Assembly (NCBI GenBank): GCA_035527535.1
Contig: DATLAK010000084.1
Location: 9,413 to 73,412, forward strand
Origin: Armatimonadota bacterium
Lineage (GTDB): Bacteria > Armatimonadota > Hebobacteria > GCA-020354555 > CP070648
Length of the DNA stretch: 64,000 nt
Direction of reading: 5' to 3'
In this document: positions 1,190 to 20,320 of the stretch, one piece after another
Layout: the number at the start of each line of letters is the position of its first letter
Numbering within the stretch: the first letter of the stretch is position 1
Translations under genes and position numbers: made by a program
The notes under the pieces: generated by a model
What the model was told of the DNA's origin: nothing
Seen by the model: the letters and a program-made list of their open reading frames with translations, nothing else
The model's database searches: none

Positions 1190-2044
1190 CACTCGCTCCT
1201 CAGGCATGGGCGCGAGGAGCGGCAGTTCCCCGGGAGGCCCGTTCGTAACGGGCATAGCGCAAGAATCGTGCCACGCCTATCGGGGTGCGATGCGGGGCGA
1301 GGGGACAGTTCCCCGCCGCCCAGCACACCGCCCAGGCCCGGAGCGGGAAGGAACTGTCCCCTCCCGGGTAAGGTGAACAGGGGAGCAGTTGAGCAGGGGA
1401 CTCGGAGACGAAGAGCAATAGAGTGGCACGCCGGCGGATGCTTGGGCGCGCCCCGATTCTTCGGGGCGCGAACCGCGCCCTCGGGCGAAGTCGCGCCCGG
1501 TCCTCACCCGCCAGGTGAAGGCCACACGCTGGCGGCGCATGATCTCGATTAGACCCGGATTATGCGTGAGGCTTCGGGGATGTCGTTCCGAGACGGCGTG
1601 AACGCAATCCGGTACGCGCGGCAGGTCAGTTTCGCGGCCCCGCTCGCCTTGATTTCCCAGCTGGCCACTGTCACCTCAGCCACACCCCAGAGCGACCCCA
1701 GGGCCATCTCCCTCCCATGCGCCCGCGTTACCCGCCCCACCTTTTCCCGACTCCCACCTAGCCACCCTTATCACTTGACGCAATCCTGCCCCCGCCGCCA
1801 GGACCCACCCTTGGCAGGAATCCCCGTCCCCTTGTTGAACATAGTATTGGTCCCAGCCCGCTTCAGATTGAACCAAGGCACGCTCATAGGGCTGACAACC
1901 TGCACATCCTGCGCGAGTACATCGCGCACGAGTGGTTGCCGCAGAAAGAGGTTTCCTGAGCCGATCCGAAAGGCAGCCGCATGAGGAGATTATCCCATCG
2001 CTAAGCAGCCCCTCGCCGAGGTCTTCGGTTTCCCGGTTGACAAC
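1190..2044. other. ~850 bp ORF-free, hairpin-rich region upstream of the R-M module
   Basis: No GC3-consistent ORF. Perfect 14-bp inverted repeat GAGGGGACAGTTCC...GGAACTGTCCCCTC (~1305-1370). Tandem GC hairpins GCGCCCCGATTCTTCGGGGCGC and GGGCGCGAACCGCGCCC (~1440-1500). Confidence 0.5.
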
Positions 2045-2854
2045 ATGAGTCCCGAAGCGATACAGCACCGCCGCGAGCGCGTCTGCCCTTTCAAGGCAGC
2101 GAAATGCACGAAGGACAAGAAAGATGACCCGCTCGGCGTGTGTAGCGTCTTTGCTGACGACAAGGTGGTCATCACCTGCCCTATGCGGTTTCGCCAAGAC
2201 TGGCTTGTTGCCAAAGACGCGGCGTCCTTTTTCTTCCCGGCCAGCGCGCACTTGGCGACGTTAACCGAAGTGCGCGTGAAAGACAAGTACGGCAAACTCG
2301 CGGGCGATATCGACCTCGTCCTCGTGTCTGTTGATGACGCGGGGCGCGTGCTAGATTTCGGCGCGCTGGAGGTGCAGGCGGTGTATATCACCGGCAACGT
2401 GCGTAACCCATTCGCGTACTACATGCAGAACCCGAAGGCGCGCCAAGAAATGAACTGGGCGAGGCAACCGAACTACCCTGGGCCTGATTATCTGTCGTCC
2501 TCTCGAAAGCGCCTAGCGCCACAGTTGCTGTTCAAAGGCGGCATTCTTCATTCTTGGGGAAAGAAGACCGCGGTGGCTCTGAACACGGGCTTCTTTGAGA
2601 CGCTGCCCGCCCTTGACGCCGTGGCATGTGAAAGAGCGGACATCGCGTGGTTTGTCTACGACCTGGAGCACCACGCGGCGCGGAACGTTTACACGCTGAA
2701 GCGTCGCCGAGTCGTGTACACCAAGTTTGAGGAGAGCCTCGCCAAGATTACGCGATCTGCCCCTGGCCCCATGGCCGATTTCGTCCGCGTCCTGCAGAAG
2801 AAGCTGGCCACTCAGTTAGAGGGCAACTCACAATCGGGCGTCAGCGATGACTAG
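2045..2854 (+). CDS. Type II restriction endonuclease, NotI-family-like (N-terminal Cys4 metal site)
   Basis: CPFKAAKC...GVCSV...ITCPMRFRQDWLV resembles the NotI Fe-Cys4 motif (CPF...C...GVCVV...DWLVCPNRA). Overlaps the downstream MTase by 8 nt. Local GC ~57%. Confidence 0.55.
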   Translation: MSPEAIQHRRERVCPFKAAKCTKDKKDDPLGVCSVFADDKVVITCPMRFRQDWLVAKDAASFFFPASAHLATLTEVRVKDKYGKLAGDIDLVLVSVDDAGRVLDFGALEVQAVYITGNVRNPFAYYMQNPKARQEMNWARQPNYPGPDYLSSSRKRLAPQLLFKGGILHSWGKKTAVALNTGFFETLPALDAVACERADIAWFVYDLEHHAARNVYTLKRRRVVYTKFEESLAKITRSAPGPMADFVRVLQKKLATQLEGNSQSGVSDD

Positions 2855-3737
2855 CATAGGATATCAACTGGATCTGGACGGGGCGCCGACGGCCGACCAG
2901 GTGGTAAACGTCGCGTCGGTTCCGCAGCGCAGTCCCTTCCGCTATCCGGGCGGAAAGACCTGGCTGATTCCGCGCGTCCGTCAATGGCTGCGTTCTCTCC
3001 CGAAGCGGCCCTCCGTGTTGGTGGAGCCATTCGCGGGCGGCGCGATTGTTGGCCTTACGGTAGCCTTTGAGCGCTTGGCCGAAAAGGTCGTTCTGGTCGA
3101 GCTTGATGAGCAGGTCGCCGCCGTCTGGAAGACTATCCTCAGCGACGACTGCGAGTGGTTAGTCGGCCGCGTGTTGTCCTTCACCCCGACCTTGGAGAAT
3201 GTGCGCGCGGAGCTTGCGAACACAGACCCGACCACGCCGGCGCTGGCCTTCCGAACCCTAGTCAAGAACCGCACCTATCACGGCGGCATTATCGCGCCCG
3301 GTAGCAGGCCTATGAAGAACGGCGAAAACGGGCGGGGATTGAAGTCCCGATGGTATCCCAGAACGCTAGCTGGACGGATACGGGCGATAGCGAGCATCCG
3401 CGACCGCATCACTTTCACCGAGGGCGATGGCATTGCGGTCATCCGCACCTACGCGCGCCGAAAGACCGCGGTGTTCTTCGTAGACCCCCCGTACACGGCG
3501 GCCGGCAAGAGGGCCGGCATGCGGCTCTACACGCATCACGTCCTCGACCATGAGAGGTTATTTGCGACCACGGCGCGCGTCGCGGGCGACTTCCTGATGA
3601 CCTATGACAACGCGGAAGACGTCGCGGCGCTCGCGGTAGCGCACGGCATGCAGACCCGGACGATTGCGATGAAGAACACCCACCATGCGCAGATGACCGA
3701 ATTGCTTGTCGGGCGCGACTTGAGCTGGTTGCGCTAG
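2847..3737 (+). CDS. DNA N6-adenine methyltransferase (D12/Dam-like, alpha class)
   Basis: Motif I EPFAGGAIVG precedes motif IV FFVDPPY. N-terminal FRYPGGK. Translationally coupled to the upstream REase. Confidence 0.8.
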   Translation: MTSIGYQLDLDGAPTADQVVNVASVPQRSPFRYPGGKTWLIPRVRQWLRSLPKRPSVLVEPFAGGAIVGLTVAFERLAEKVVLVELDEQVAAVWKTILSDDCEWLVGRVLSFTPTLENVRAELANTDPTTPALAFRTLVKNRTYHGGIIAPGSRPMKNGENGRGLKSRWYPRTLAGRIRAIASIRDRITFTEGDGIAVIRTYARRKTAVFFVDPPYTAAGKRAGMRLYTHHVLDHERLFATTARVAGDFLMTYDNAEDVAALAVAHGMQTRTIAMKNTHHAQMTELLVGRDLSWLR

Positions 3738-7102: not shown

Positions 7103-9853
7103 TCACTCGCGCAGCGGCTCGCCCTGGCTGATGATGGTGACGTAAGCGCGTGCGCTCGCGGTCTGGTCGGCCCGTGCGTCGCAGGTGAAAGCGACCTGGT
7201 TGTCGCCGGCGGCAAGCTCCGGCGCTTCTCCCTCGGGCTGCACCTCGGCAATCAGCTTGCCCTGGGGATCATAGAGCCTGCAATCCGACATGGAGCGAAA
7301 CTCGAGGTAGCAGCCGGTTTCGATCTCGCACGGGAAGACGACGGTCTTGCCGCCGATGGTCACCGCCGGGTTGCGCAACTTGATCTCGACCAGCGGCAGC
7401 GCCCGGATGGGGCTCAGGCGGCAGTCCACCTGTCCCCCCGGCGGGAGGTTGTTGTACCATAGGCCGAGCGATGCCACCTGGCGGTAGTCCACGAACTCGC
7501 GGTAAATCGAGTGCAGATCGCCGTAGGGCCAGTGATAGTCCTCGAAGCGCGCGCCCTCCGGCTCGATCATCTCGAAGTAGCGCCAGCCGGTGAAGTCCAC
7601 AATGACGTAATGGTCGCCGATGCCGGCGACAACGTGCTCCGGGCTGCGGAGCTGAAAGTTGAGCACTTCCCCCTGCCCGTCGCCGTGAACCCAAACGCCG
7701 AGCGCCTGGCGCTCACCGAGGTCGAGCGGGGTCGGGAACACCTTGGTCATCCCCGCCCACGTTGCGGTGGGCTGCTGCAGTTCGCTGGTGGCGGTGTAGC
7801 GGCCGCTGACGGGGCCCGCCTTCACCTCGGCCGCGTCGGGGCGCAGATCCGCACGCACACCGGCCTGGGCGACGCGATCGGCGAAGTCGCGGTCGTCCGC
7901 GAAATCCGCCAGCGTCAAGTTGTCGGCCGCGTCGTACGGGCCCGCCGACAGCAGCGCCTCGATCCGCAACTGCGCGGGCTGGCCACCAAACTTGCTGCAC
8001 GTGGTCCAGACGTTGCTCCAGCCGTCGCTGCCCTGCACTTTGTGCTTCGCATATTGCACCGGCCGGAAGAACCACTTGCCGTCTGCGGCTTGCTCCAGCG
8101 TGAACTCGCCGCCAGGCGCCCTCAGCTTCGCCTTGACCGACTCCGGGAAGTAGTTGGCGTGCCGTAGATCCTCGTACCGCTTGAAGACGGCCGCCAGCCG
8201 CGCGAAGGCCGGCACTTGCGCTATGCTGTCGGGGTCCACCCCCATCAGCGAGAGGCCGGTATCGGTGGCCAGGGCCTTGCCGCACAGGTACTCGATGTCG
8301 TCCGTGAAGGTGGGCTCCCCCTCGGCGCCCGACCAGGTATTCACCGCCCACCATCCCAGGTGGCCAGGCATCAACATCCGCAGATTGCCCTGGTTGACAG
8401 CAACGTGGAGGTCTATGAATCGCTTGTGACTGCGCCGGGGGTGATCCCAGGCACCCAAGCGCGAGCGCACATACCACAGGTGATGGTGGAATGTGCTCAT
8501 CTCCATGAGCGCGGGGCGCTGCAGGTGCTTCCATATCTCGAACACGAACCTAGAGCTGTAGTGCCAGTAGTTCTCGGCCCCGCCGAGGATGTCTCCGCCG
8601 TCCAGCGCATCGAGGTAGATCATGTCGAAGCCGCACTCGTTGAAGGCCTGCGCGGTCCTTTCCGCCACCTCGCCCAACAGCGTGGAATCGGCATCGGGCA
8701 CGAACAGGCCGAAGCACTCCTTCAGGTGATGCACCTTCGCCCCCGGGGCATGGGGAGCGGGCCGCGTGCCGCAGGCGCCGCGCTCGCAGCCGGTGAAGCC
8801 GTAGGGCGGATCCTGGGCTACACCGGCATAGGTGATCAGCTCGTCGTCTATCTGCAGGGTGGCGCTGTTGCGCACGTAGAAGCCGGTGACCGCGGACATG
8901 CCTTCGGTCTCCTCCATCACCGCCACCGCGGTGTCGTCGGCGCCCAGCGCCGCGGCCAAGGTCAGGCACGCATCCTTGGCGAGCCGCGGATCCGGCGACG
9001 GCGCCACCCACGGGCAGCGCTTGTCAATGAAGAAAGCGTAGGTATGCAGGCCGGCCTTGATGCCGGCGGCGTGCAGCCGGTCAATCACCGCCTTGAGGCT
9101 GGCGAAGCCGCGCGGGTAGGTTTCCGGATTGGGCAGGCAGTCCCCAAACCGGAAGGAAGCGCCGCCGTGGAAGTCTATCTGGTTGAAGCCAAGCGCCTGC
9201 ACTAGCCTGATCCAGTCATCCGCGGTCTGCTCCGACAGGTTGGCGAGGTTGAACAGGTATGACCCGCGGTTGATCTCGGCGTCGAGCGCCCACGGCCCGC
9301 CGATGGAGGAATGCGGCAGCTCCGGCGCCGCGCTCACGACTTCTTGCATCACCTGCCGCAGCTCGCCCTGGGGGCAAGCGATGAGCGCGACCTTGGCGCC
9401 GGCGAAGCCGAAGCGGGGATAGCACGCCGCCCACAGGTGCTTGCTCGGTCCCGGCAGCCCGGACACATTGGTCTGCAGGTTGAGGGCGAGCGCGCAGCAG
9501 GCGAACTCCTCCTCCAGCGTCCCCTCAAGCGTGAGACCGATGTTGGCGAACACGAGCTCCTCCACCCCTTCGCCCGCGACCGACAGGACTTCCAGGGTAA
9601 AGTAGCGCCCCTGCTCGACTGCCGCGAGCACGACCTCGACTCCCGCATCGCCGAACTGCGCCGTGATGCGCCCGTCCCGAAACGAGACCGCTGACGCGCC
9701 GTGATACCGGCCCGCCTGCTTGACTTGAGCGAACGGGAGCCGTGGCTCCCGGACGCAGTAGTCCATGCCCGTGCGCCGGTCAATCAGGTGTGAGTTCTCG
9801 CCGTTGGGGCCGATCTCGTAGCTGGCGCATTGGTTCTCGATTCCCATGGTCAT
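7103..9853 (-). CDS. large (916 aa) hypothetical protein, TIM-barrel glycoside-hydrolase-like
   Basis: Long GC3-rich ORF. Segment GFNQIDFHGG...AGIKAGLHTY is typical of (beta/alpha)8 glycosidases. No exact family assigned. Confidence 0.55.
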   Translation of the reverse strand: MTMGIENQCASYEIGPNGENSHLIDRRTGMDYCVREPRLPFAQVKQAGRYHGASAVSFRDGRITAQFGDAGVEVVLAAVEQGRYFTLEVLSVAGEGVEELVFANIGLTLEGTLEEEFACCALALNLQTNVSGLPGPSKHLWAACYPRFGFAGAKVALIACPQGELRQVMQEVVSAAPELPHSSIGGPWALDAEINRGSYLFNLANLSEQTADDWIRLVQALGFNQIDFHGGASFRFGDCLPNPETYPRGFASLKAVIDRLHAAGIKAGLHTYAFFIDKRCPWVAPSPDPRLAKDACLTLAAALGADDTAVAVMEETEGMSAVTGFYVRNSATLQIDDELITYAGVAQDPPYGFTGCERGACGTRPAPHAPGAKVHHLKECFGLFVPDADSTLLGEVAERTAQAFNECGFDMIYLDALDGGDILGGAENYWHYSSRFVFEIWKHLQRPALMEMSTFHHHLWYVRSRLGAWDHPRRSHKRFIDLHVAVNQGNLRMLMPGHLGWWAVNTWSGAEGEPTFTDDIEYLCGKALATDTGLSLMGVDPDSIAQVPAFARLAAVFKRYEDLRHANYFPESVKAKLRAPGGEFTLEQAADGKWFFRPVQYAKHKVQGSDGWSNVWTTCSKFGGQPAQLRIEALLSAGPYDAADNLTLADFADDRDFADRVAQAGVRADLRPDAAEVKAGPVSGRYTATSELQQPTATWAGMTKVFPTPLDLGERQALGVWVHGDGQGEVLNFQLRSPEHVVAGIGDHYVIVDFTGWRYFEMIEPEGARFEDYHWPYGDLHSIYREFVDYRQVASLGLWYNNLPPGGQVDCRLSPIRALPLVEIKLRNPAVTIGGKTVVFPCEIETGCYLEFRSMSDCRLYDPQGKLIAEVQPEGEAPELAAGDNQVAFTCDARADQTASARAYVTIISQGEPLRE

Positions 9854-10328
9854 GGGGTCTCCTTCGGCCAGGATGAGCGTGGCCGTTGCTTGTAGATTGG
9901 AAAGTCCTATTTCTGGTGTGGGAGGTTGCCCACCTGCCGAGCAGGCGGTGTGGCGAAACCGAAGCGGGCCGGCAGCGTCAATGCCGGCCCGCCGGACGCC
10001 GGTTCGGCCGCAGGTAGGTCAGCGCGCCAGGGTGGTGAGCCGCTGCTTCCCGAGGGAAGGGAGGCCACAGCCCCGCTCGCGTGGCCGAACCGCGTGGATC
10101 GAGGGCAGCCGGAAACGGCTGCCCGCCGCTTGGGGCAGCACGAACCGTGCCACTACAGCCCTCCGATCCGCACCGCACGCACCAGACGGCGCACAGGCCG
10201 CCGCAGCCAAGGCGCCGGAGCGGGCCTCAAGGCCCCTGCGCGGTTAACGGCGAAAAACGGATGCGATTCCGGCGTCGGGCGGGGCCGCGGCTTACTCGGC
10301 CACCGTGCCCGCGCGAAAGGAGCAGACG

Positions 10329-10742
10329 ATGAAATTCGCGACCGACTACCTGTGGATGAACACCAGGCGCTCGCGCGAGTACGTGAACATCACCGCCGAG
10401 GTCGAGCGCGTGGTCGCCGAGAGCGGCATCCGCGAGGGGATGGTGCTGGTGTCGGCGATGCACATCACCGCCGGCGTCTATGTCAACGACGCGGAGGAGG
10501 GCATCATCGCGGATATTGACGAGTGGGCCGACCGCCTCGCCCCCCAGGGGCCTGATTATCGCCACCACCGCACCGGCGAAACCAATGGCGACGCCCACCT
10601 CAAGAGCATCCTCGTCCACCACCAGGTGGTGGTGCCGGTGACGGGGGGCAAGCTCGACCTCGGCCCGTGGCAGCAGATCTACTACGCCGAGTTCGACGGC
10701 CGGCGCCGCAAGCGCGTCATCATCAAGGCGATGGGGGAGTGA
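10329..10742 (+). CDS. YjbQ/UPF0047 family protein (secondary thiamine-phosphate synthase-like)
   Basis: [12 protein letters not shown]...[18 protein letters not shown]...[35 protein letters not shown] matches the YjbQ family. Confidence 0.8.
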
Positions 10743-10803
10743 GCGCCCTCGCGCTGCTGTTGCTACTATCATGCACAGGCGCGCGTCAATGTGCCGTGCG
10801 TTC

Positions 10804-10833
10804 TTGACGATCCCGCCAAACGTGTGTTAGCAT
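10804..10833 (+). promoter_or_regulatory. candidate sigma70 promoter: TTGACG-N17/18-TGtTAGCAT
   Basis: -35 TTGACG 10804-10809. Extended -10 TGtTAGCAT ~10825-10833. Lies ~35 bp upstream of the island's first gene. Confidence 0.35.
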
Positions 10834-10868
10834 CAGCGCCAACAGCGGCAGCACCGGAGGGATGACCG

Positions 10869-11126
10869 TTGAAAGAGTACGAGGAATGGTACAGGGCGAA
10901 TCCTCTGCGTCAGTGGAGGGAAGGGCAGGAGCCTCGCGTATCGCGACCCGCGCTCGCCCACGAGATGATCGTTCGCGGGTATTCCATCACCCCCGCGACC
11001 ATCCAGCGTTGGGAGTGCGGCGAGTACGCAGTGCCCGATGCGGCGATGAAGTTGCTGGCGGAGATCACGGGCATGCGCGACCTGCGCGCGAGGTGGGAGA
11101 AGTGGCAGGGAGGGCGTGCGAGATGA
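10869..11126 (+). CDS. XRE/Cro-type helix-turn-helix protein (85 aa), TTG start
   Basis: HTH pattern SRPALAHEMIVRGYSITPATIQRWECGEYAVPDAAMKLLA. RBS GGAGGG sits 7 nt upstream of TTG. In-frame stop immediately upstream. Confidence 0.5.
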   Translation: MKEYEEWYRANPLRQWREGQEPRVSRPALAHEMIVRGYSITPATIQRWECGEYAVPDAAMKLLAEITGMRDLRARWEKWQGGRAR

Positions 11127-11245
11127 GAGAACTCCTTGGCCCCGGGGATGGATCGAGCCCGATTCTGGGTGCCAGGTGAATGGCTGGCGGGAGTGGAACT
11201 CTAACGCGTCGGCTTCGAATAGACCACACCGACCGGAGGTGAACC

Positions 11246-11881
11246 ATGCCGCTTACAGGCCCAAGAGCCCTGTTGCTGGCATTGCTATACGCTCCTGGCG
11301 CAAGGCGGATGCCCGGAGAACCCATCGCCGGTATCACGCGCCTGCAGAAACTACTGTTCCTCCTGCAGGAGGAGTACGGATTGCGGAAAGGCGGCCGGGG
11401 GGTTCTGGTCTTCGAGCCGTACCGGTTCGGTCCGTACTCGGCGGCCCTGTATGACGAGATCAGCTTCCTCGAGAACCTGAATCTCATCACGGACAGGAGA
11501 GATACGGGGGCGGCGAGCGCCGAGGAGACTGAGCAGGAGGACAAGCTGGTCGAGGGACTCATGGCGGAGGCAGAAACGGAAGGCAGCATCGGGGCGGAAA
11601 TTAGTGAGGAGGACGTGAAGGGCCTGGAGTACCTTCTAGATGATGTGCCTGGCGAGGACGCCCTCGAGGCGAATCCTGACGAGAGGCAATTCTGCCTCAC
11701 GCCCAGGGGCATGGCCTCTGCGAAGGCCGTCTTTGACTCGCTCAGCTCCGACGAGCGGCATGCCCTTGAGAGCGCCAAATCGAGGTTCGGAGGCATGTCG
11801 TTGAGGAACCTCATCCGGTATGTCTACACGCAGTATCCGGAATCGGCAAGCGAATCGGAGATCAGGGATCGTATACTGTGA
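11246..11881 (+). CDS. Panacea-domain (SocA-like antitoxin) protein with acidic C-terminal extension
   Basis: ITRLQKLLFLLQEEYG...FEPYRFGPYSAALYDEI matches the Panacea/SocA hallmark (hxLQKLLY...GPxxxxLY). RBS GGAGGT upstream. Confidence 0.5.
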   Translation: MPLTGPRALLLALLYAPGARRMPGEPIAGITRLQKLLFLLQEEYGLRKGGRGVLVFEPYRFGPYSAALYDEISFLENLNLITDRRDTGAASAEETEQEDKLVEGLMAEAETEGSIGAEISEEDVKGLEYLLDDVPGEDALEANPDERQFCLTPRGMASAKAVFDSLSSDERHALESAKSRFGGMSLRNLIRYVYTQYPESASESEIRDRIL

Positions 11882-12402
11882 TGGTTCCTACGACCGCGCA
11901 GATGGGGGCGGCAGGTGCGGTTCTGGCATTCGCAGCTGGCGCGCTCGCATTGCTTCACAACTCAAAGCGGATGGAGCGTGCCAGAGATCTTGCCGCCGCC
12001 CAGTCGCGACTTTGGGAGCGAGCAGTACTTGAGTTGCGCGAGCACATCCAGCGTCTCCATGACCTGGCTGATAGATGCATGGCGGAGTCGGGTCCGGAAG
12101 CTGGGACAGCCGGCCAGATGCGGCGTCTCTTGCGTCGGTCCAGGGGGTGTGTTCGCCGCCTGGACGCGCCGATTCGGCTAGGCAAGTGGGTCTCTGGTAC
12201 CGAGAGGAGCATGTTTGCTTCCGCCCTCGGGCTGGTTGCTTCGTGTCTGGCCGTGCTGCTCGGCGGCGCATTTTCGTTCAGCCCGTTCCCGTATGCGACT
12301 TGGATGGGTGTGGGGAGCGGCGCGGCCTTGGTACTCAGCTATGGTGGCAATTATGCCGCTATCTGCTGCTGCGAAAGGCTGATGAGGGCGCAAGGGCTGT
12401 AG
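11878..12402 (+). CDS. membrane protein with central coiled-coil (candidate toxin partner)
   Basis: ATGA start/stop overlap with the upstream gene. One N-terminal TM helix, a coiled-coil in the middle, two C-terminal TM helices. Confidence 0.45.
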   Translation: MMVPTTAQMGAAGAVLAFAAGALALLHNSKRMERARDLAAAQSRLWERAVLELREHIQRLHDLADRCMAESGPEAGTAGQMRRLLRRSRGCVRRLDAPIRLGKWVSGTERSMFASALGLVASCLAVLLGGAFSFSPFPYATWMGVGSGAALVLSYGGNYAAICCCERLMRAQGL

Positions 12403-12414
12403 GGAGTGCCGAGC

Positions 12415-12828
12415 ATGACCGAGATCGAGATCGAGGAAGCGGTGGCCGAGTTCCTCTCCCGACCTGGTTGTCTTGTGGAGCGGCAGGTAGCCTTTCTCCG
12501 AAAGGTCGCGGATGTCTGCTCCTACGATCCTGTCTGCGACACGCTGCTGGCTGTGGAGGCGAAGCGAGAGGACTGGCGCCGCGGGATGCAGCAGGCGCGG
12601 TATTACCAGCTCTTCGCCGACGCCGTCTACATCGCTCTGCCAGAATGCCGGGCGCTGCGTGTCCGAACGCCGCAACTCGAAGAGACAGGCATAGGTCTCC
12701 TTGTGGTGAACAGCACAGTCTCTGTCAGCGTGGAACATGGCCACAACCCTTTCCGCCGAGATCTGTGTCGTGAGATGGTGATTGAGCGTCTTCGCTCTGG
12801 CCCGCGAAGTGGAGGGGGGAACCGCTGA
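12415..12828 (+). CDS. PD-(D/E)xK nuclease, RecB/Cas4-like family
   Basis: CDTLLAVEAK (D...ExK) followed by QQARYYQ (QxxxY). RBS AGGGAG. An alternative GTG start lies at 12406. Confidence 0.5.
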   Translation: MTEIEIEEAVAEFLSRPGCLVERQVAFLRKVADVCSYDPVCDTLLAVEAKREDWRRGMQQARYYQLFADAVYIALPECRALRVRTPQLEETGIGLLVVNSTVSVSVEHGHNPFRRDLCREMVIERLRSGPRSGGGNR

Positions 12829-14150
12829 TGTCATTTGCCGCTGCACAGGCCCCCCAGAATCTGTATCGGCTTGGAACGCACGCCGAAGCGGAGTATTACC
12901 GCCATCTGAAGTCCGCTTACGACGGCATGATCGTCAATGCCAACCTGGTAGAGGCGACCCCGAAGGCCACAGCCTCGTTCCTGGCTACACAAGGCAAGCC
13001 CTTTCTGCTCGACCCGATGACATACGCGTTCGGGCTGAGTCCTGCGGTGCTGCATAGCAACTCCAAGCGCGGGGGGATGAAACGCTCATTTGCCGCTCTA
13101 GCCGAACGATATGGCGGGGTCATACTGAAGCTGGCCGGCAAGGAGGCGATAGGGCCGGATGCCTTCCAGCGAGATTCGGACGTGTCTGACCTTGCCAAGG
13201 CCGTCATCAGTTACCAACTACACCGCTTCGATGATATAGCGAATGAGATGAAAGATGCTGCCCCTGAGGCGTTCGGCGGACTCACCGGACTCTCGCCTGC
13301 TGGGGCGATTGCACCCTACTTCCACATTGATGAGGTCATCGAGCCGGCGCTCTCACTGAACACGCGGCTTCTCCGCGCCGCTGTCTCCCTCCAGCCCGAG
13401 CAGCCAATCTACGCCATGCTGTGCCTTTCCAGCGGGATTCTCTTTGCTGCAAATCTGCTAGACACGATCGCGGGTGCCTACGTGACGGCTGGCGCGACGG
13501 GTTTCATGTTCTGGTTCGATGACGCCACGGAGCGGACCATCGGGACTCTGGGCGTGCAGAATCTCGTCAGATTTGTGAGAGCGTTGAGCCAGAATGGGCA
13601 CTCGGTCTACAACGCTTACGGCGGCTGCCTCTCCGCCCTTCTTTCTCGCTTTGGCCTTTGCGGCTTCTCGCATGGCCTCGGTTACGGAGAGCGCAGGTCG
13701 ATTGTGCCTGTGACGGGCGGAAGTGTTCCGCCACCGAAGTACTATGTTCCGCCGCTCTGCGAGCGGTACAATGTGACGACCGTCTTGCTGATTGCCCCTT
13801 CCGTGCAGTCTGGGATCGACTTTCACGCAGAGATATGCGGCTGCGCAGTCTGTCGCCGGGTGCTGGCAGGTAACCCGGATCGGCTTGTTGAGTTCGGTCG
13901 AACCAGAGATATGTCCGACAAGAATGGGCGGCCTATCAGCGTTCCCACCGCTGAAAGCATCAAGCTTTGCCGGCTTCATTACATGCTCGCGAAAAGGGAC
14001 GAGGTAAACCGGATTCGGGCCAACTGGAGCAGCGCAGTCGAAAGCCTGGCCGTGGCCTACGAGAAGTACGTCGATGTCCTCGGCAAGCCCGAGGTGGCTC
14101 ATCTCGATGTGTGGCACCGCGAACTGACTGCCGCCAACCGAAAACCGTGA
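12828..14150 (+). CDS. hypothetical protein with CxCxxC...H zinc site, possibly tRNA/DNA-guanine transglycosylase (TGT/DpdA)-like
   Basis: TGATG overlap with the nuclease gene. CGCAVC...H motif. DTIAGAYVTAGATGFMFWFDDA resembles the TGT DDIVGAVERGIDMFDCV region. Fold assignment is inference. Confidence 0.55.
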   Translation: MSFAAAQAPQNLYRLGTHAEAEYYRHLKSAYDGMIVNANLVEATPKATASFLATQGKPFLLDPMTYAFGLSPAVLHSNSKRGGMKRSFAALAERYGGVILKLAGKEAIGPDAFQRDSDVSDLAKAVISYQLHRFDDIANEMKDAAPEAFGGLTGLSPAGAIAPYFHIDEVIEPALSLNTRLLRAAVSLQPEQPIYAMLCLSSGILFAANLLDTIAGAYVTAGATGFMFWFDDATERTIGTLGVQNLVRFVRALSQNGHSVYNAYGGCLSALLSRFGLCGFSHGLGYGERRSIVPVTGGSVPPPKYYVPPLCERYNVTTVLLIAPSVQSGIDFHAEICGCAVCRRVLAGNPDRLVEFGRTRDMSDKNGRPISVPTAESIKLCRLHYMLAKRDEVNRIRANWSSAVESLAVAYEKYVDVLGKPEVAHLDVWHRELTAANRKP

Positions 14151-14459
14151 CTGAGCACCTCAACCACGCTGCCGTCGCCCGCAGGGCTGTCGGAAAGACT
14201 GTGCCGCGCGGGGAGAGGCGGCAAACCGCTGACGTGCGCGGGATGAGTGATTGTGGTGGGGTGACCCTGGCGAGCGCCCTCGCTGTGACTGTGGCGCTCC
14301 TTGCAGCAGTACAGGGCGCCGTGGAACGCTCAAGCGCCGCCGCGGACATGGTAGTGCGGGAGGCGGCACAGCTGTGAACGACGTACTGATCGGTGTGGCA
14401 ATGGGCTAGTTACCGGGACGGTCACCTGCTTTCTTGCCTGGTGGGTCCTGTTCCACGTT

Positions 14460-15011
14460 GTGGTTCCCAACGTGCGCTTCTCTCAATCAATAAGCAGGCT
14501 TCCCGCAGAGGACAGGAAACCGCCCTGGGAGTACCGCGTCAAGTTTGAGAACGCTGGCAGGAGAGCCATCATGGATGTCGAGGTGACAGCCAGACTTCGA
14601 GTGAAGCGCTTGGTCGCGACCCGTCCTGGCAATTGGTGGGTGTCCAGCATTCCTGTCGAGTACGGTGACCCCATATGCAGGGTCCCTAAGATGGGACCCG
14701 TGCGCACAGGGGCACGTCGCCAAATTGTGCCGCTTCTGGTGAACGACGCGGAGCAGTTCAGACAGGCTCCCTATCCGGCAGAGGTCAGGGAGAAGGCACA
14801 GAACCGATCTCTGCTGCCGGAGGATCTACTGCGGTTGGGCGATAGGACGGAACTGCGGCTCATCGTCTCCGGATATGATGCCTTCAGCGGCGCCCGACGG
14901 CTCTTCGTATCAAAGGAATACACCGTGGGCGACATCATCGACGGACGGTTCAACAAGGATGGACTAGAAGTAATACCGCAGGCTAGTGAGCCGTCTGAGC
15001 CTTCCGCGTGA
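14460..15011 (+). CDS. hypothetical protein
   Basis: GC3-consistent ORF. No recognised motif. Start uncertain (GTG 14460 or ATG 14569). Confidence 0.35.
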   Translation: MVPNVRFSQSISRLPAEDRKPPWEYRVKFENAGRRAIMDVEVTARLRVKRLVATRPGNWWVSSIPVEYGDPICRVPKMGPVRTGARRQIVPLLVNDAEQFRQAPYPAEVREKAQNRSLLPEDLLRLGDRTELRLIVSGYDAFSGARRLFVSKEYTVGDIIDGRFNKDGLEVIPQASEPSEPSA

Positions 15012-15043
15012 CGTCGAGGCGCTCGGTGAGTAGCGAGAGGATG

Positions 15044-15256
15044 TCATGCGGCTCTGAAGTGGCAGGGCGCATCCAGAGCCAGCAGTGCCGGGCGCGTCGC
15101 CGGGACGATGCAGCGCGCTGCTTCTTGGCCTATCTCCATCGTTGACACCCACCAGGTTGCAGGCAGCCCCTCGACCCGGAAGGTCACCAGCGGTGACGCC
15201 CCGTTGCTCCACGCGACCAACGCCGCGTCCTCGGCTATGGGGTCGGGGCGGGACAT
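15044..15256 (-). CDS. small hypothetical ORF (70 aa), possibly a gene remnant
   Basis: GC3-rich. Lies between the island and the first REP-C element. Confidence 0.2.
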   Translation of the reverse strand: MSRPDPIAEDAALVAWSNGASPLVTFRVEGLPATWWVSTMEIGQEAARCIVPATRPALLALDAPCHFRAA

Positions 15257-15316
15257 GTTCCCGACTATTATAGACGCAAAGCCGGGCGGAAACTTACGGG
15301 GCTTCTCCCATGGTGG

Positions 15317-15370
15317 GACAAGCGTCTCGCTTGTCCGCTGGCCTGGCCAGGCGAGACGCCTGGCCTACCG
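15317..15370. repeat. REP-C double hairpin GACAAGCGTCTCGCTTGTC ... CCAGGCGAGACGCCTGGCCTACCG
   Basis: Same architecture and CGTCTCG/CGAGACG core. Confidence 0.6.
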
Positions 15371-15563
15371 ATTACGGCGCGGTGGTGCCCGGCTCACTCC
15401 GCCCCGGCCGAATCCCGCCTTTGTGCCGCGCCTGCGCGACCAAAGCTGTTCCCAATCTGTTACACTCCGTGGGGAATCCATCGCGCATGGGGAGGCGTGG
15501 AGACAAGGGCGTGATGAATCACGCCCCTACACCGGAATTCACGGAGCTTATGGAGGCGAAATC

Positions 15564-16769
15564 ATGGCGGAGCATGACTACCAGTACGTCATCATCGGCG
15601 GCGGGCCGGCCGGCGCGGCGGCGATCGAAGGGATCAGGGAACGTGACCACGATGGTCGCATCCTGCTGGTCGGCGCGGAAAAGCATTTGCCCTATGACCG
15701 CCCCCCGCTGTCGAAGAAGTTGTGGTTCGGCAAGAAGCAGGTCGCGGACATCTTCCTCCACGACCAGGCGTTCTATGCCGCCAACTCGACCGACCTCGCC
15801 CTCGGCGTCCGCGTGGTCGGCCTCGATCCGCAGCGCAAGACGATCACCGACGACCAGGGCGACCTCCACCATTACCACAAGCTGCTGCTGGCCACGGGCG
15901 GCATCCCGCGCACCCTTGGCATCCCGGGGGGCGACCTGGAGGGCGTCTGCTACTACCGCTACCTGGACGATTACCTGACAACCCGCGCGCGGGCGACGGC
16001 GGCCAAGTCGGCGGTGGTCATCGGCGGCGGCTTCATCGGCTCGGAGATGGCGGCGGCGCTCAGCCTCAACCAGGTGGAGGTGACGATGGTCTTCCCGGAG
16101 CAATGCCTGGTGGCGCGCGTGTTCCCGGAAACCCTGGGGCGGTCGCTCCAGCAAACCTACATCGAGCGCGGGATCACCGTCCTGTCGGGAGACGTGCCTA
16201 CCGCTATCGAGCGGCATGATGACGCCCTCATCGTCGCCACCCGCGGCGGCCGGCGCCTGCGGGCCGACATCGTCATCGCCGGCATCGGCATCGCGCCCGC
16301 GAGCGAGCTGGCGGCGGGGGCGGGGCTGACCCTCGACGACGGGATTGTGGTTGACGAATACCTGCGCACCTCGGCCCCCGATATCCATGCCGCCGGCGAC
16401 AACGCGTTCTTCCCCTACCAGGTGTTGGGGCAGCGCACGCGCGTCGAACACTGGGATAACGCGGTCAACCAGGGCAAGCAGGCGGGGCGCAACCTGGCGG
16501 GGGCGCAGGAGGCGTTCACCTACATGCCGTACTTCTTCTCCGACCTCTTCGATTTCGGCTACGAGGCCGTCGGCGAGGTGGACGCCCGACTGGAGACCTT
16601 CGCCGATTGGCGGCAGGAGAACGACACGGGCGTCATCTATTACCTGCGGGAGGGGCAGGTGCGAGGGGCGATGATGTGCAACGTGTGGGACCAGGTGGAG
16701 GCGGCGCGGGAGCTGATTCGCGGCGGCCGGCGGATGACCGCGGAGGACCTGCGCGGCGCCATCAAGTAA
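15564..16769 (+). CDS. FAD-dependent pyridine nucleotide-disulfide oxidoreductase (AIF/ferredoxin-reductase-like)
   Basis: YVIIGGGPAGAAA (FAD), VVIGGGFIGSEMAA (NAD), AAGDNA motif. RBS GGAGG. Confidence 0.8.
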   Translation: MAEHDYQYVIIGGGPAGAAAIEGIRERDHDGRILLVGAEKHLPYDRPPLSKKLWFGKKQVADIFLHDQAFYAANSTDLALGVRVVGLDPQRKTITDDQGDLHHYHKLLLATGGIPRTLGIPGGDLEGVCYYRYLDDYLTTRARATAAKSAVVIGGGFIGSEMAAALSLNQVEVTMVFPEQCLVARVFPETLGRSLQQTYIERGITVLSGDVPTAIERHDDALIVATRGGRRLRADIVIAGIGIAPASELAAGAGLTLDDGIVVDEYLRTSAPDIHAAGDNAFFPYQVLGQRTRVEHWDNAVNQGKQAGRNLAGAQEAFTYMPYFFSDLFDFGYEAVGEVDARLETFADWRQENDTGVIYYLREGQVRGAMMCNVWDQVEAARELIRGGRRMTAEDLRGAIK

Positions 16770-16799: not shown

Positions 16800-17123
16800 G
16801 TGATGGACTTGGCGGAGCAGGAATGTCATCCGGTGGCGGCGACGACCCCGCCCCTGTCGCGGCCGGAGGCGGAGAAGCTGGCCCAGGAGATCCCGCAGTG
16901 GACGCTGAAGGAGGGGGTGATCGAGCGCGAGTTCACCCTCGACGATTTCGAGGAGGCGATGGAATTCGTTAACGGCGTCGCCGAGATCGTGCAGGAGCAG
17001 GACCACCACCCCGACATCTACATCGCCTACAACCAGGTGCGGCTGGAGTTCTCGACGCACAAGATCGGCGGGCTGTCCCGCAACGATTTCATCATGGCGG
17101 CCAGGGTGGACGAGCTGGCGTAG
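16800..17123 (+). CDS. pterin-4a-carbinolamine dehydratase
   Basis: ~105 aa. EQDHHPDIYIAYNQVRLEFSTH is the PCD signature. Confidence 0.75.
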   Translation: MMDLAEQECHPVAATTPPLSRPEAEKLAQEIPQWTLKEGVIEREFTLDDFEEAMEFVNGVAEIVQEQDHHPDIYIAYNQVRLEFSTHKIGGLSRNDFIMAARVDELA

Positions 17124-17280
17124 GGCCCCGAGCGGTTCTAAGGGGGCGTTCGAGTCTGGTTAGCGTGCGGACAGAAACCCCTCTCCCTTCGAGGGAGAGG
17201 TCGGCGAGCCCGCGGCGAGCCGAGTGAGGGTTGCCCGCCGTAGGCGGGGTCGTCCGCCATGGGCGGGATAGGTTTGGTGC

Positions 17281-17325
17281 GGCAGGCGTCTCGCCTGCCG
17301 ATCGTTTCGCAGCCGAGACGGCTGC
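17281..17325. repeat. REP-C double hairpin GGCAGGCGTCTCGCCTGCC ... GCAGCCGAGACGGCTGC
   Basis: Same family. Located in the ~1 kb noncoding stretch upstream of the folate genes. Confidence 0.6.
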
Positions 17326-18147
17326 ACTACCACTCCACCCCGACCTCAGTCATCCCCCTTGAACTTGTCCGCCTGCGGCGGGGGGGGAGGGGTGAGCTTG
17401 GATAGTTCCCGCTTTTCGCTCACACCCGTCTGAGCCGGCGTGGACGCAAGCGGGTACTTGCGCAAGGGCGGTTGCGTGGCCCTTCTTGTGTTTCCGGAGG
17501 GCATCTCCTCGGCAGGGATCCCCACGGCGTCGTCGAACTAGATCCTGCCCGCAAGATTGCCTAGCGCGGAACAATGGTAAGCCCAGATGCGCGAGAGCCT
17601 TCTGCACTACGGCGACGACCTCGACACTTCGCACTCTTGCGTCGGCGGTTGCTCACTTCCACTATCTCAGCATCGTTCATCCTCGCGAGTCACGGCACAG
17701 ATGGCAGTCAGCAGGAAGACCATGGTCTGAGGCAGAGAAGCGCGTGGCAGATGTGGGGCTGAGGGTTCCATGCACTCCGACGATCAGGTATTCGGCTGGT
17801 TAGTGTTCATCGCCTGGGCCGCCTCCCTGGTTGTGCCTGGGATTCTCCTTGTCTTCCTCTGGCGCGGCGCGAGCGCCCTGAGTCGGTTGGCGGCGCTCCA
17901 AGTCCGGCGACGGAGAAGGGGGCGCGAATCTCGGTCACCTAGTGCGTAGAAGGATCCCCGCTGCGCGGACACATGCATGTAGTGGCGGCGCACGTCGCAT
18001 GATGCGGCTGTGACGTAACGCTGGCGCGGCGAGTGAAAAATCCCCCATCCGGAGTGCCCCCATGATGGGTGTCTTGGCCTGCGGCTCGGAGTGATCTCAC
18101 GCGCCCCGCGCCTGTCGCCAGTGGACTTGCCCTGGCAAGCTGATGAT

Positions 18148-18906
18148 ATGAATGCGCAATCCCTGCGCGGCATGACCGCGCTCATCACCGGGGCGGCCCG
18201 GCGCCTCGGCCGCGCGACCGCGCTCGCGCTGGCCGACGAGGGCGTCAACATCGTCATTCACCATCGCGCCTCCGCCGCCGAGGCACGCGACCTGCAGCGA
18301 GAGCTGGAGGCCCGCGGCGTGCGCGCGTGGCCGCTGGAGGCCGACCTCGGCCATCCCCGCCAGTGCGACGCCCTGGTCCCGCGCGCGCTCGAGGCCGCCG
18401 GCGCGCTCGAAATCCTGGTCAACAACGCCGCGGCCTTCCCCGCCGACACCGTGGACGACCTCACCCGCGAGCGCCTGCTGGAGATGGTGGAGGTCAACGC
18501 CTGGGCGCCGTTCGCGCTGGGGCGGTCGTTCGCGCGAGCGGTGAAACGCGGGGTCGTCATCAACTTCCTCGACACCCGGCTCAGAGGTTATGACCCGGCG
18601 CACGTCGCATACATCATGAGCAAGCACCTGCTGGAGCGGTTCACGCGCACGATGGCGCTGGAGTTCGCCCCCGGGGTGCGGGTCAACGCGGTGGCGCCGG
18701 GGCTGATCCTGCCGCCCGCGGGCAAGGACGAAACCTACCTCGACCGGCTGGCGGCCCGGGTGCCGCTTCAGCGCCACGGCGAGCCGGAGCAGGTCGCCGC
18801 CGCCGTCGTCTTCCTCGCCCAGAGCGAGTTCATCACCGGCCAGGTCCTCTACGTTGACGGCGGCCGGCACCTGGCGGAGTACCGCTATGGACCGCATCCT
18901 GATTGA
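18148..18906 (+). CDS. SDR family oxidoreductase (pteridine-reductase-like, by context)
   Basis: TALITGAARRLGRA glycine-rich NAD(P)-binding loop. Catalytic YxxxK not examined. Located immediately upstream of folB-folK-folE. Confidence 0.7.
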   Translation: MNAQSLRGMTALITGAARRLGRATALALADEGVNIVIHHRASAAEARDLQRELEARGVRAWPLEADLGHPRQCDALVPRALEAAGALEILVNNAAAFPADTVDDLTRERLLEMVEVNAWAPFALGRSFARAVKRGVVINFLDTRLRGYDPAHVAYIMSKHLLERFTRTMALEFAPGVRVNAVAPGLILPPAGKDETYLDRLAARVPLQRHGEPEQVAAAVVFLAQSEFITGQVLYVDGGRHLAEYRYGPHPD

Positions 18907-19240
18907 GGACCTGGTCGCGCGCTGCGTGCTCGGCGTCAGCGCCCAGGAGCGCCGCGAGAAGCAGGAGGTCGTCATCAACCTCGCGCTCGCGACGGATACC
19001 CGCACCGCGGGCAAGAGCGACCGCTTCGCGGACGCGGTGGACTACCGCGCGATCAAGAAGCGCGTCTTGGCCGCAGTCGAGGAATCGCAGTTCCACCTGG
19101 TCGAGGCGCTGGCGCAGCGGGTCGCGGAGATCTGTCTCGACCACCCCGGCGTGCGCGAGGCGCAGGTGACGGTGAGCAAGCCGTCGGCGCTGCGTTTCGC
19201 GCGCAGCGTCGGCGTCCGCATCACGCGCTGCCGGGGGTAG
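18887..19240 (+). CDS. folB: dihydroneopterin aldolase
   Basis: MDRILIEDL...VVINLALATD...DYRAI resembles FolB. Overlaps the SDR gene end. Confidence 0.75.
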   Translation: MDRILIEDLVARCVLGVSAQERREKQEVVINLALATDTRTAGKSDRFADAVDYRAIKKRVLAAVEESQFHLVEALAQRVAEICLDHPGVREAQVTVSKPSALRFARSVGVRITRCRG

Positions 19241-19245
19241 CGGCG

Positions 19246-19764
19246 ATGGCGCGCGCGTTCATCGGCATCGGCTCCAATATCGCCCCCGAGCGGAACCTGC
19301 GCGCCGCGCTGCGCCGGCTCGCCCGCGACGCGCGCGTGATGGGTGTTTCGACGGTCTATCGCACGGCGCCGGTGGGCCGCCCCGAGCAGCCGCCGTTCTA
19401 TAACTGCGTGGTCGAGATCGAGACCGGGTTGGCGCCGGCGCAGGTGCGGAGCGCCTTGCGCGGCATCGAGCAGGAACTGGGCCGCCGCCGCGGCGCCGAC
19501 CGGTACGCGCCGCGCGCCATAGACCTGGACCTGCTGCTGTACGATGACCTGGTGATGGCGAACGCCGAGCTGGTGCTGCCGGATCCGCAAATCGCGCAGC
19601 GCCCGTTCCTGGCGCTGCCGCTGTACGAGCTGGCGCCGGAGCTGGTGCTGCCCGATAGCGGGGATCCCATTCGGGAGGTCGCCGCCGCCATGGCAGCCCA
19701 CGACATGCAGCCGCTGCCGGAGTACACGCGGCTTCTGCGAGAGGGTATCGCCCATGAATCGTGA
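19246..19764 (+). CDS. folK: 2-amino-4-hydroxy-6-hydroxymethyldihydropteridine pyrophosphokinase
   Basis: AFIGIGSNI...YRTAPVG...[10 protein letters not shown] matches the HPPK signature. Confidence 0.85.
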
Positions 19765-20320
19765 CAAGGTCGAGCGACTGGTGAGAGAGCTGCTGGCCGA
19801 AATCGGCGAGGACCCCGAGCGCGAGGGCCTGGTCAAGACCCCGCGGCGCGTCGCCGCCGCGCTCGAGTTCTTGACCGCGGGCTATGGCGCCGACCTCAAG
19901 ACCATCATCGCCGGCGCGGTCTTCACCCAGCAGACCAACAACATGGTCATCCTGCGCGACATCGAGCTCTACAGCCTGTGCGAGCACCACCTGCTGCCGT
20001 TCTTCGGGCGCTGCCACATCGGCTACATCGCCCGCGGCAAGGTCTTCGGCATCAGCAAGCTGGCGCGGCTGGTGGACGCCTACGCGCGGCGGCTGCAGAT
20101 CCAGGAGCGCCTGACCGAGCAGGTCGCACGGGCGGTGATGGAGGGCATCGGCGCCGAGGGCGTGGGCGTCATCATCGAGGCGCGGCACCTGTGCATGATG
20201 ATGCGCGGGGTGGAGAAGCAGAACTCGCTGATGATCACCTCCTCGGTGCTGGGGAGCTTCCACGACTCCGCCGCCACCCGCAGTGAGTTCATGTCGCTCA
20301 TCGGCAGAGCCCATATCTGA
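19754..20320 (+). CDS. folE: GTP cyclohydrolase I
   Basis: [26 protein letters not shown]. Confidence 0.9.

Follow-up and report, generated by a model that had tools for sequence, protein, structure and literature searches.

A 64,000-nucleotide stretch of the genome of an Armatimonadota bacterium (NCBI GenBank assembly GCA_035527535.1, contig DATLAK010000084.1, positions 9,413 to 73,412 of the forward strand; hereafter the window, numbered from its first letter) raises the question whether a short island of unusual base composition within it encodes an undescribed defence module and, if so, which of its genes belong to that module. The island, at positions 10800-15050, lies between a gene for a UPF0047/YjbQ protein (10305-10742) on its left and a gene for an FAD oxidoreductase (Pyr_redox_2) on its right, and it encloses six open reading frames (ORFs), all on the plus strand, which we refer to as P1 to P6. 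Its guanine-plus-cytosine (GC) content is 61.2%, compared with 68.0% for the whole 64-kb window, and it is the minimum-GC 4.25-kb stretch of the window (next non-overlapping minimum 63.5%; mean of all 4.25-kb stretches 68.6%, standard deviation 2.1). An earlier note on this DNA, made from the letters alone, had described the low-GC segment and the six genes between yjbQ and the oxidoreductase gene as we find them, and had inferred that the genes for a Panacea-domain protein, a membrane protein, a nuclease and a protein resembling tRNA-guanine transglycosylase (TGT) form a module that matches no described system. This central inference is borne out, the four genes being a conserved, co-located set in other genomes; the six-gene extent given to the module is not, four of the genes being conserved and P1 and P6 being absent from the related loci. 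On these comparative grounds, the conserved functional unit is the four-gene operon P2-P3-P4-P5, with P1 and P6 as local additions in this Armatimonadota genome. The cassette appears to be undescribed and is best filed as a Panacea-type toxin-antitoxin (TA)/defence cassette together with a new clade of the TGT superfamily.

Four genes recur in the same order across many phyla

The relatives of P5 are distant (29-37% identity) and all unnamed, and they have the same upstream genes on their contigs. An operon of four genes in the same order is present in about 45 genomes and plasmids from many bacterial phyla and one archaeon. In a scan of species representatives covering 185,579 species with one genome each, we found 47 loci, all of them in metagenome-assembled genomes, from Anaerolineales, Dehalococcoidia and Limnocylindrales (Chloroflexota), Armatimonadota, many Planctomycetota, Acidobacteriota, Gemmatimonadota (Gemmatimonadales), Gamma- and Alphaproteobacteria, Latescibacterota, Sumerlaeota, Ignavibacteriales and Eremiobacterota. 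A tblastn search with the six window proteins against all loci places P2, P4 and P5 at fixed offsets in nearly every locus and finds P1 and P6 in none; homologs of these two are missing from all of the approximately 50 related loci, in which there is also no conserved small gene upstream of P2 or downstream of P5. All-versus-all clustering of the ORFs within about 8 kb in 49 non-redundant loci resulted in exactly four families that occur in more than three loci, namely P5 (48 loci), P2 (41), P4 (38) and a membrane protein of about 200 amino acids in the position of P3 (36).

The gene order was recorded in a census of the 43 loci that have at least 2.3 kb of sequence upstream of P5, using the letters A to D for P2 to P5 and a lower-case b for a non-homologous protein with several transmembrane helices in the P3 slot. 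The order is ABCD in 34 loci, AbCD in five, Ab-D in two and -BCD in one, and a single degenerate locus is ---D; the window copy is of the AbCD type. While the earlier note had allowed that homologs of these genes might never be found together in other genomes, the four-part order is present in 39 of the 43 loci, which represent more than 12 phyla. The most constant pair consists of P2 and P5, as the Haloarcula locus described below has no P3 and two loci have no P4. One of the loci without P4 (L001) encodes, after P5 and on the same strand (L001 7540-8613), a protein of 357 amino acids of the NucS_C-type PD-(D/E)xK class with the motif D...FELK...QxxxY, which suggests that the nuclease role is retained there through non-orthologous replacement. 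Two unusual proteins were also encountered in the representative set: in P0194, most of a P3-family protein is joined to P5 without the initial ~56 residues of the latter, and in P0223, the N-terminus of P2 is joined to a truncated P5. We rejected P3::P5 and P2::P5 as informative or functional fusions, as both look like internal deletion products of the operon.

The junctions in the window delimit the same four genes. The P2/P3 junction reads GTGATG (rather than the ATGA that had been reported at 11878), and the start of P3, either GTG 11878 or ATG 11881, overlaps the TGA stop codon of P2. P4, which is preceded by GGGAG, follows P3 after 3 nucleotides if its GTG start is used or after 12 if its ATG is used, and the ATG of P5, with GGAGG ahead of it, overlaps the TGA of P4 in the TGATG at 12826-12830 that the earlier note had seen as well. 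Overlaps of stop and start codons are also found in related loci. A gap of 119 nucleotides separates P1 from P2, and P6 follows P5 after 309 or 420 nucleotides, depending on the choice of its start codon. Owing to these large gaps, the tight packing attributed to all six genes holds for P2 to P5 and does not extend to P1/P2 or P5/P6, and none of the junctions outside the two overlaps has the 4-nucleotide gap that had been described. The absence of P1 and P6 homologs from related loci, together with the larger gaps around the two genes, is the reason for taking the unit to be four genes.

P5 is predicted to be a zinc-binding TGT-fold barrel with a divergent pocket

P5 (12828-14150, plus strand; cassette gene D) is a protein of 440 amino acids from an unannotated family, for which the AlphaFold2 model is confident (pLDDT 91.5, pTM 0.90) and has the (beta/alpha)8 barrel of TGT type. 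The CxCxxC...H motif noticed earlier is confirmed as a predicted metal site: in an alignment of 202 sequences, C337, C339, C342 and H384 each reach a conservation of at least 98%, and in an hhalign comparison they fall on the zinc ligands C302, C304, C307 and H333 of E. coli TGT, with the alignment of the P5 profile to E. coli TGT being significant only around the zinc motif and a forced long alignment being of low confidence. Annotation libraries do not recognise the protein, as P5 has no Pfam family at E ≤1 and no NCBIfam or PADLOC match, and 29 of its relatives have no TGT-family Pfam match at E ≤0.1, giving only five unrelated weak matches. Searches of PDB sequences with the single P5 sequence and with its profile likewise returned no TGT and nothing relevant. 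Using HMMER on 1.84 billion representatives, we obtained 1,080 members of the P5 family at E ≤1e-3 (each a cluster at 50% identity), 550 of them at E ≤1e-30, nearly all being single-domain proteins of 430-480 amino acids. When viral contigs were scanned for relatives of TGT, only near-identical genes of the E. coli type came up, and none of the fetched loci contains a tgt gene.

Compared with bacterial TGT (PDB 3unt; E. coli Tgt), to which it is 13% identical without a Pfam TGT match, P5 has a helical insert of about 90 residues after strand 3, a three-helix extension at the C-terminus and a longer zinc subdomain, with 41 residues between the last cysteine and the histidine instead of 25. The residues conserved at 94% or more in the 202 members are D62-P63, Y164-F165, W229, E235, G265, H282 and Y286-G287-E288 and, towards the C-terminus, C337/C339/C342, H384, E392 and W429, and position 290 is always arginine or lysine. 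This conservation points to an active, constrained pocket. To our knowledge, the barrel pocket accommodates guanine or a 7-deazaguanine in all TGT-fold proteins that have been characterised. In TGT and DpdA, three invariant aspartates act as general acid/base, in base recognition and as the nucleophile (PMC10164549). The base-recognition and nucleophile aspartates of TGT are not conserved in P5, and DpdA, in which D95, D130 and D256 are invariant (PMC10164549), has no sequence-level similarity to P5 with its one conserved aspartate; the position expected for the nucleophile of DpdA carries the conserved H282 of P5, with E288 close by. From the register of the strands we infer that D62 occupies the general-acid position, Y164/F165 the position of the recognition aspartate and H282, with E288 nearby, that of the nucleophile. 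The model thus shows P5 as a predicted zinc-binding TGT-fold barrel whose pocket residues differ from those of the canonical guanine and 7-deazaguanine transglycosylases. The earlier description of P5 as TGT/DpdA-like accordingly stands for the fold, as judged by structure, and for the zinc site, but not for the catalytic residues, of which one conserved aspartate is found instead of three invariant ones.

The cassette partners are a Panacea-like protein, a membrane protein and a small nuclease

P2 (11246-11881, plus strand; cassette gene A) is a Panacea/SocA-like protein of 211 amino acids and a putative antitoxin or sensor. Its match to Pfam SocA_Panacea (E 2.8e-5, 25.4 bits) is 0.3 bits below the gathering cut-off of 25.7, and the profile of its own family scores the window P2 at 6e-51. 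Among 38 family members, 12 match Panacea, and no other Pfam family is matched. The matches of P2 to NCBIfam SocA and DarG are weak, and the Haloarcula homolog of P2 is labelled in RefSeq as a SocA-domain protein/antitoxin. The Panacea assignment, which had already been made from the letters, is therefore borderline by score and consistent across sources. Panacea antitoxins neutralise very diverse toxins, amongst them membrane depolarisers with a coiled-coil N-terminus and C-terminal transmembrane helices (PMC8832971), and the domain is possibly also a sensor (PMC10440598). In the family alignment, a long and strongly acidic insert of glutamate- and aspartate-rich sequence with little conservation (residues ~85-150 of the window P2) divides the Panacea core; it could serve as a disordered tether or mimic nucleic acid.

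P3 (11878-12402, plus strand; cassette gene B), which has 173 or 174 amino acids, is a putative membrane effector or toxin with three helices. An N-terminal transmembrane helix (9-27) is followed by a helical soluble segment of about 90 amino acids and by C-terminal transmembrane helices (116-134 and a weaker third), and a protein of this layout occupies the same slot in 41 of the 43 census loci. The predicted helices show P3 to be a multi-pass membrane protein, in agreement with the earlier note; no Pfam family fits it. The five annotated proteins of the island (HUT74306-HUT74310) are all designated 'hypothetical protein', and P3 is missing from the NCBI annotation, in which the locus tags pass from VM221_05685 (P2) to 05690 (P4); other gene callers give it 63 or 173 amino acids. 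The full-length ORF is supported by its slot, its coupling and its topology, which are as in about 40 related operons.

P4 (12406-12828, plus strand; cassette gene C) is a small stand-alone protein of 140 amino acids from GTG 12406 or 137 from ATG 12415. A search with its single sequence returned only P4 itself, and relatives were found by profile search, in 286 clusters at 90% identity, none of which has a Pfam domain. D36, E51-x-K53, Q63 and Y67 are invariant, with E6 being nearly so in a wider alignment of 45 sequences, and the predicted model has a restriction-endonuclease fold in which the D...ExK and QxxxY motifs are intact. At the level of the model, P4 is thus shown as a PD-(D/E)xK nuclease whose catalytic motif is intact, and the earlier reading of its motif and fold class was right. 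Its further designation as RecB-like appears too specific, as the structures closest to the model are those of SPO1766, the type II restriction enzymes and NucS. P4 has no sequence-level match to these small stand-alone PD-(D/E)xK proteins and domains (SPO1766, PDB 3dnx; the C-terminal domain of NucS; the catalytic domains of type II restriction enzymes), its profile matches no chain among PDB sequences, and its Pfam matches are weak and scattered (MTES_1575, YhcG_C, NERD).

The gene set differs from described Panacea and transglycosylase systems

The P2-P3 pair resembles the PanA/PanT (PanAT) systems, in which a Panacea/SocA (DUF4065) gene is translationally coupled to a membrane gene whose product has a helical soluble part and C-terminal transmembrane helices, and validated membrane-depolarising PanT toxins, for example PanT of Helicobacter sp., have the same layout as P3. 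The cassette differs in having four conserved genes, whereas only two- and three-gene operons were considered in the screens for PanAT and NetFlax (PMC8832971, PMC10440598); under the partner definition used there (partner within 100 nucleotides, operon of at most three genes; PMC8832971), P3, which overlaps the P2 stop codon, is close enough to P2, but the operon is one gene too long. The Panacea domain of P2 is moreover split by the acidic insert, and the toxicity of P3 and its neutralisation are putative. Kurata et al. reported that some PanAT pairs adjoin accessory third genes, including nucleases and nucleic-acid-modifying enzymes, in a small fraction of genomes (PMC8832971); in the cassette, the genes for the nuclease and the TGT-fold enzyme are fixed components and not occasional extras.

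With respect to the transglycosylase systems, the cassette lacks the Dpd gene set, as no DpdB (ParB-like ATPase), DpdC, DpdD-K or preQ0 synthesis genes occur near it in the 49 loci within about 8 kb, and PADLOC gives no Dpd match for any window protein. Cap10 of the type IV cyclic-oligonucleotide-based anti-phage signalling system (CBASS; PDB 9ntn) has no zinc site and is partnered by the QueC-like Cap9 and a CD-NTase (bioRxiv 10.1101/2025.04.06.647259), neither of which is present in the window or in the related loci. P5, unlike Cap10, keeps the zinc site, and for this reason a nucleic-acid substrate is favoured for it. Two further candidates were set aside: the TGT-containing BRC system (PMC12839542), which has a different gene set, and the PADLOC candidate system PDC-M19, to which only the Panacea N-terminus of P2 corresponds (PDC-M19A, 5.7e-13, residues 31-94 of P2 on model positions 22-80 of 294), no other window protein matching any PADLOC model.

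The earlier note had named two further outcomes that would have told against a new module, that the proteins belong to unrelated housekeeping families or that the gene order is that of a named system. Scans of the six proteins with Pfam, NCBIfam, PHROGs and PADLOC gave Panacea and sub-threshold noise, and assigned none of them to a housekeeping family. PADLOC v2 contains no model for P3, P4 or P5 and no named system with the gene order of the cassette, nor did we find the cassette described in the literature on Panacea with transglycosylase, TGT-like anti-phage proteins, DUF4065 with a TIM barrel, PDC-M19 and DpdA-like proteins, as covered outside subscription-only papers.

The operon is mobile and often has defence genes as neighbours

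In view of its position in the lowest-GC stretch of the window, its patchy phyletic spread and its copies on plasmids, the P2-P5 operon is, by its composition and distribution, horizontally acquired and mobile. Plasmid pSI-1 of Arthrobacter sp. AK-1 carries a complete cassette (L060 4339-7167) with genes for 184, 200 (three transmembrane helices), 148 and 409 amino acids just downstream of a relaxase gene, and plasmid pNG400 of Haloarcula marismortui (L059 4949-7185) lacks the membrane gene and encodes proteins resembling P4 and P5 together with one that has a SocA domain, beside genes for an HNH endonuclease and ParA. Both plasmid-borne cassettes are distant relatives and reside in cultured organisms. 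No phage copies were detected: tblastn against 50,697 phage genomes gave no match, P5 occurring in no phage genome, and a fold search in BFVD found no convincing viral relative (best TM-score 0.28).

For about 45 loci, the two closest genes of at least 120 amino acids on either flank were scanned with PADLOC at E ≤1e-5, which amounted to 162 proteins. The matches comprise MADS (mad2, mad3, mad6, mad8), PARIS AriA, AbiLi, type I, IIG and III restriction-modification (R-M) systems, DISARM (DrmA, DrmD, DrmMI), HmaA (Hma), BrxH, PD-T4-6, PbeA and PDC-M71B. One locus (L006) has a type ISP R-M gene, an Mrr_N protein and a PIN protein as neighbours.

A proposed conflict cassette and its alternatives

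We propose that the four genes are a conflict cassette of the TA or abortive-infection type, widespread and as yet without a name, that is built around a new TGT-fold enzyme, a reading to which we give about an even chance of being correct. P5 would bind nucleic acid through its TGT-like zinc subdomain and flip a base into its pocket, acting as the recognition or base-processing component by which a base of invading DNA or RNA is removed or swapped; P4 would cleave the nucleic acid marked by P5; and P3 would be a PanT-like membrane-depolarising effector that is kept inactive by P2 until a trigger arrives, with the outcome that the infected cell arrests growth or dies. This reading is supported by the near-obligate co-occurrence of all four genes and by the replacement of P4 with a NucS_C protein in L001, as well as by the mobility of the operon, its defence neighbours and the features of the four proteins described above.

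Several observations weigh against this proposal. P3 or P4 is absent from a few loci, which means that neither is strictly essential, and the window P3 has no detectable homology to the main P3 family (profile E 0.14, phmmer also negative), agreeing with it in position and topology only. Since P2 and P5 are the most constant pair, it is conceivable that the toxin controlled by P2 could be P5 rather than P3. Of the three aspartates invariant in TGT and DpdA, at most one is matched, as D62, located after strand 3, is the single aspartate conserved at 94% or more, and the chemistry or substrate of P5 may depart from that of these enzymes; the P5 homolog of Arthrobacter pSI-1 even lacks the CxCxxC zinc motif. 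The cassette in the window is flanked by housekeeping genes with no defence island there, many flanks elsewhere consist of ordinary metabolism or housekeeping genes, and the defence neighbours are supportive evidence collected without a matched control rather than a proven enrichment. Finally, toxic and neutralising effects, cleavage by the nuclease, the exchange of bases and protection against phages are all putative properties of the cassette.

A plain PanA/PanT addiction or plasmid-stabilisation module, in which P2 neutralises P3 or an enzymatic toxin P5, with P4 and P5 carried as accessory cargo and no role in immunity, would account for the translationally coupled Panacea and membrane genes, which are arranged as in validated PanAT pairs (PMC8832971), for the plasmid cassettes beside relaxase and ParA genes, and for the constancy of P2 and P5 in loci that lack P3 (Haloarcula) or P4 (two loci). 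The nucleases and nucleic-acid-modifying enzymes seen by Kurata et al. beside some PanAT pairs (PMC8832971) also speak for it, but these accompany the pairs in a small fraction of genomes, whereas 39 of the 43 loci, spread over different phyla, contain all four genes of the cassette, as a single functional unit would. The catalytic-type residues of P4 and P5 are in addition fully conserved, and defence genes are frequent neighbours, so that we regard this explanation as unlikely while granting it some weight. As many TA modules are themselves defence systems, it overlaps with the conflict cassette proposed here. A minimal Dpd-like modification-restriction system is another possibility, in which P5 would insert a modified base (7-deazaguanine or an analogue) into host DNA, P4 would restrict incoming DNA that is unmodified and P2-P3 would be an addiction module by which the cassette is stabilised. 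Neither QueC/D/E nor a DpdB-like ATPase, DpdC or a helicase recurs in the 49 loci within about 8 kb, though, the P5 family has one conserved aspartate where TGT and DpdA have three (PMC10164549), P4 with its ~140 amino acids has no separate DNA-recognition domain and two loci do without P4, all of which makes such a system improbable. Of comparably small probability is base-excision restriction, according to which P5, as a new functional branch of the TGT superfamily, would flip and excise or exchange a base in invading nucleic acid, P4 would cut the damaged site and the Panacea-gated membrane toxin would provide an abortive back-up; an example of its target would be 7-deazaguanine or the other modified purines by which phages escape restriction.

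Two further explanations have very little in their favour. All six genes lie on the same strand of the same low-GC segment behind one promoter-like site, as would be expected if P1 to P6 were one module with the helix-turn-helix (HTH) protein P1 as its dedicated regulator and P6 as its sixth component, but the lack of P1 and P6 homologs and of any conserved small flanking gene in about 50 related loci, and the gaps of 119 nucleotides before P2 and 309 or 420 after P5 as opposed to the overlaps inside the core, largely refute this idea, and we give it hardly any credence. A vertically inherited housekeeping operon for RNA or DNA base modification with a membrane function would fit the housekeeping flanks in this window and the fact that TGT-superfamily enzymes are mostly housekeeping tRNA modifiers. 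It is very improbable given that the genes are confined to 47 genomes among 185,579 species representatives, with a scattered occurrence in phyla that are not related and in an archaeon, that there are plasmid copies and a deviant GC content, and that P5, which has no Pfam TGT match, is accompanied by Panacea and restriction-endonuclease-fold partners.

Should the proposed conflict cassette be confirmed as protective, its enzyme would act on the bases of nucleic acids by a new chemistry, which might be useful as a tool. The cassette is compact and present in hundreds of environmental genomes and on bacterial and archaeal plasmids, and its components are annotated as hypothetical or, in the case of P3, are missing from the public annotation. 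The approximately 1,080 P5 clusters constitute an unannotated clade of the TGT superfamily without a Pfam family, in which the zinc subdomain is kept and the predicted pocket is a different one (D, YF, W, E, H, YGE). In this clade, the transglycosylase fold would have entered genetic conflict by a third route, in addition to those of DpdA and Cap10. The cassette also extends the network of Panacea antitoxins beyond the two- and three-gene operons of the published screens.

Other features of the island and its surroundings

P1 (10869-11126, plus strand; HUT74306.1, annotated as hypothetical) is an ORF of 85 amino acids with a TTG start, outside the conserved cassette. The Cro/XRE HTH assignment given to it earlier holds to the extent that P1 is a possible HTH regulator, but all its HTH matches are below threshold: HTH_31 at E 0.021 (15.5 bits where 27 are required), Aca2_YdiL at 0.037 and VC1465_fam at 1.8e-4 (21.5 bits where 70 are required). 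Upstream of P1, on the plus strand at 10804-10833, a consensus scan found the sigma-70-like promoter pattern TTGACG-18-TAGCAT with 9 of 12 matches and an upstream TG, the same site that had been proposed before; it is a pattern match only, two such sites being found in the region where 0.8 are expected. P6 (14571-15011, plus strand; HUT74310.1, annotated as hypothetical) is an orphan ORF inside the island and outside the cassette, with 146 amino acids from ATG 14571 or 183 from GTG 14460, and it has no match in Pfam, NCBIfam, PHROGs or PADLOC.

Att-like direct repeats, tRNA genes and an integrase were looked for at the island borders, and only short repeats at chance level were found, which extends the earlier observation of no integrase or att repeat to tRNA genes. 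A scan of 10000-16000 with Rfam, covering for example the preQ1 riboswitch, gave nothing credible. Directly upstream of the YjbQ gene, the minus strand encodes a protein of 916 amino acids (7103-9853) with no Pfam match on record, and about 7 kb upstream of the island there is a separate R-M system, in which a gene for a NotI-like restriction endonuclease is followed by an overlapping gene for a D12-class N6-adenine methyltransferase (window ~2000-3737, coordinates deduced from genes called on L056, an identical contig, with window = L056 + 2827). A pterin/folate cluster at 16803-20320, just downstream of the oxidoreductase gene, comprises genes for Pterin_4a, a short-chain dehydrogenase, FolB, HPPK and GTP cyclohydrolase I. 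The synthesis of 7-deazaguanine also begins with the last of these enzymes. The presence of FolB and HPPK points to folate synthesis, and genes of this kind do not recur near the cassette in other loci. P6 itself is flanked by unusually long non-coding stretches (within 14150-15564), of 309 or 420 nucleotides before it and about 550 after it, and the latter contains an imperfect inverted repeat of 25 nucleotides at 15312-15369.

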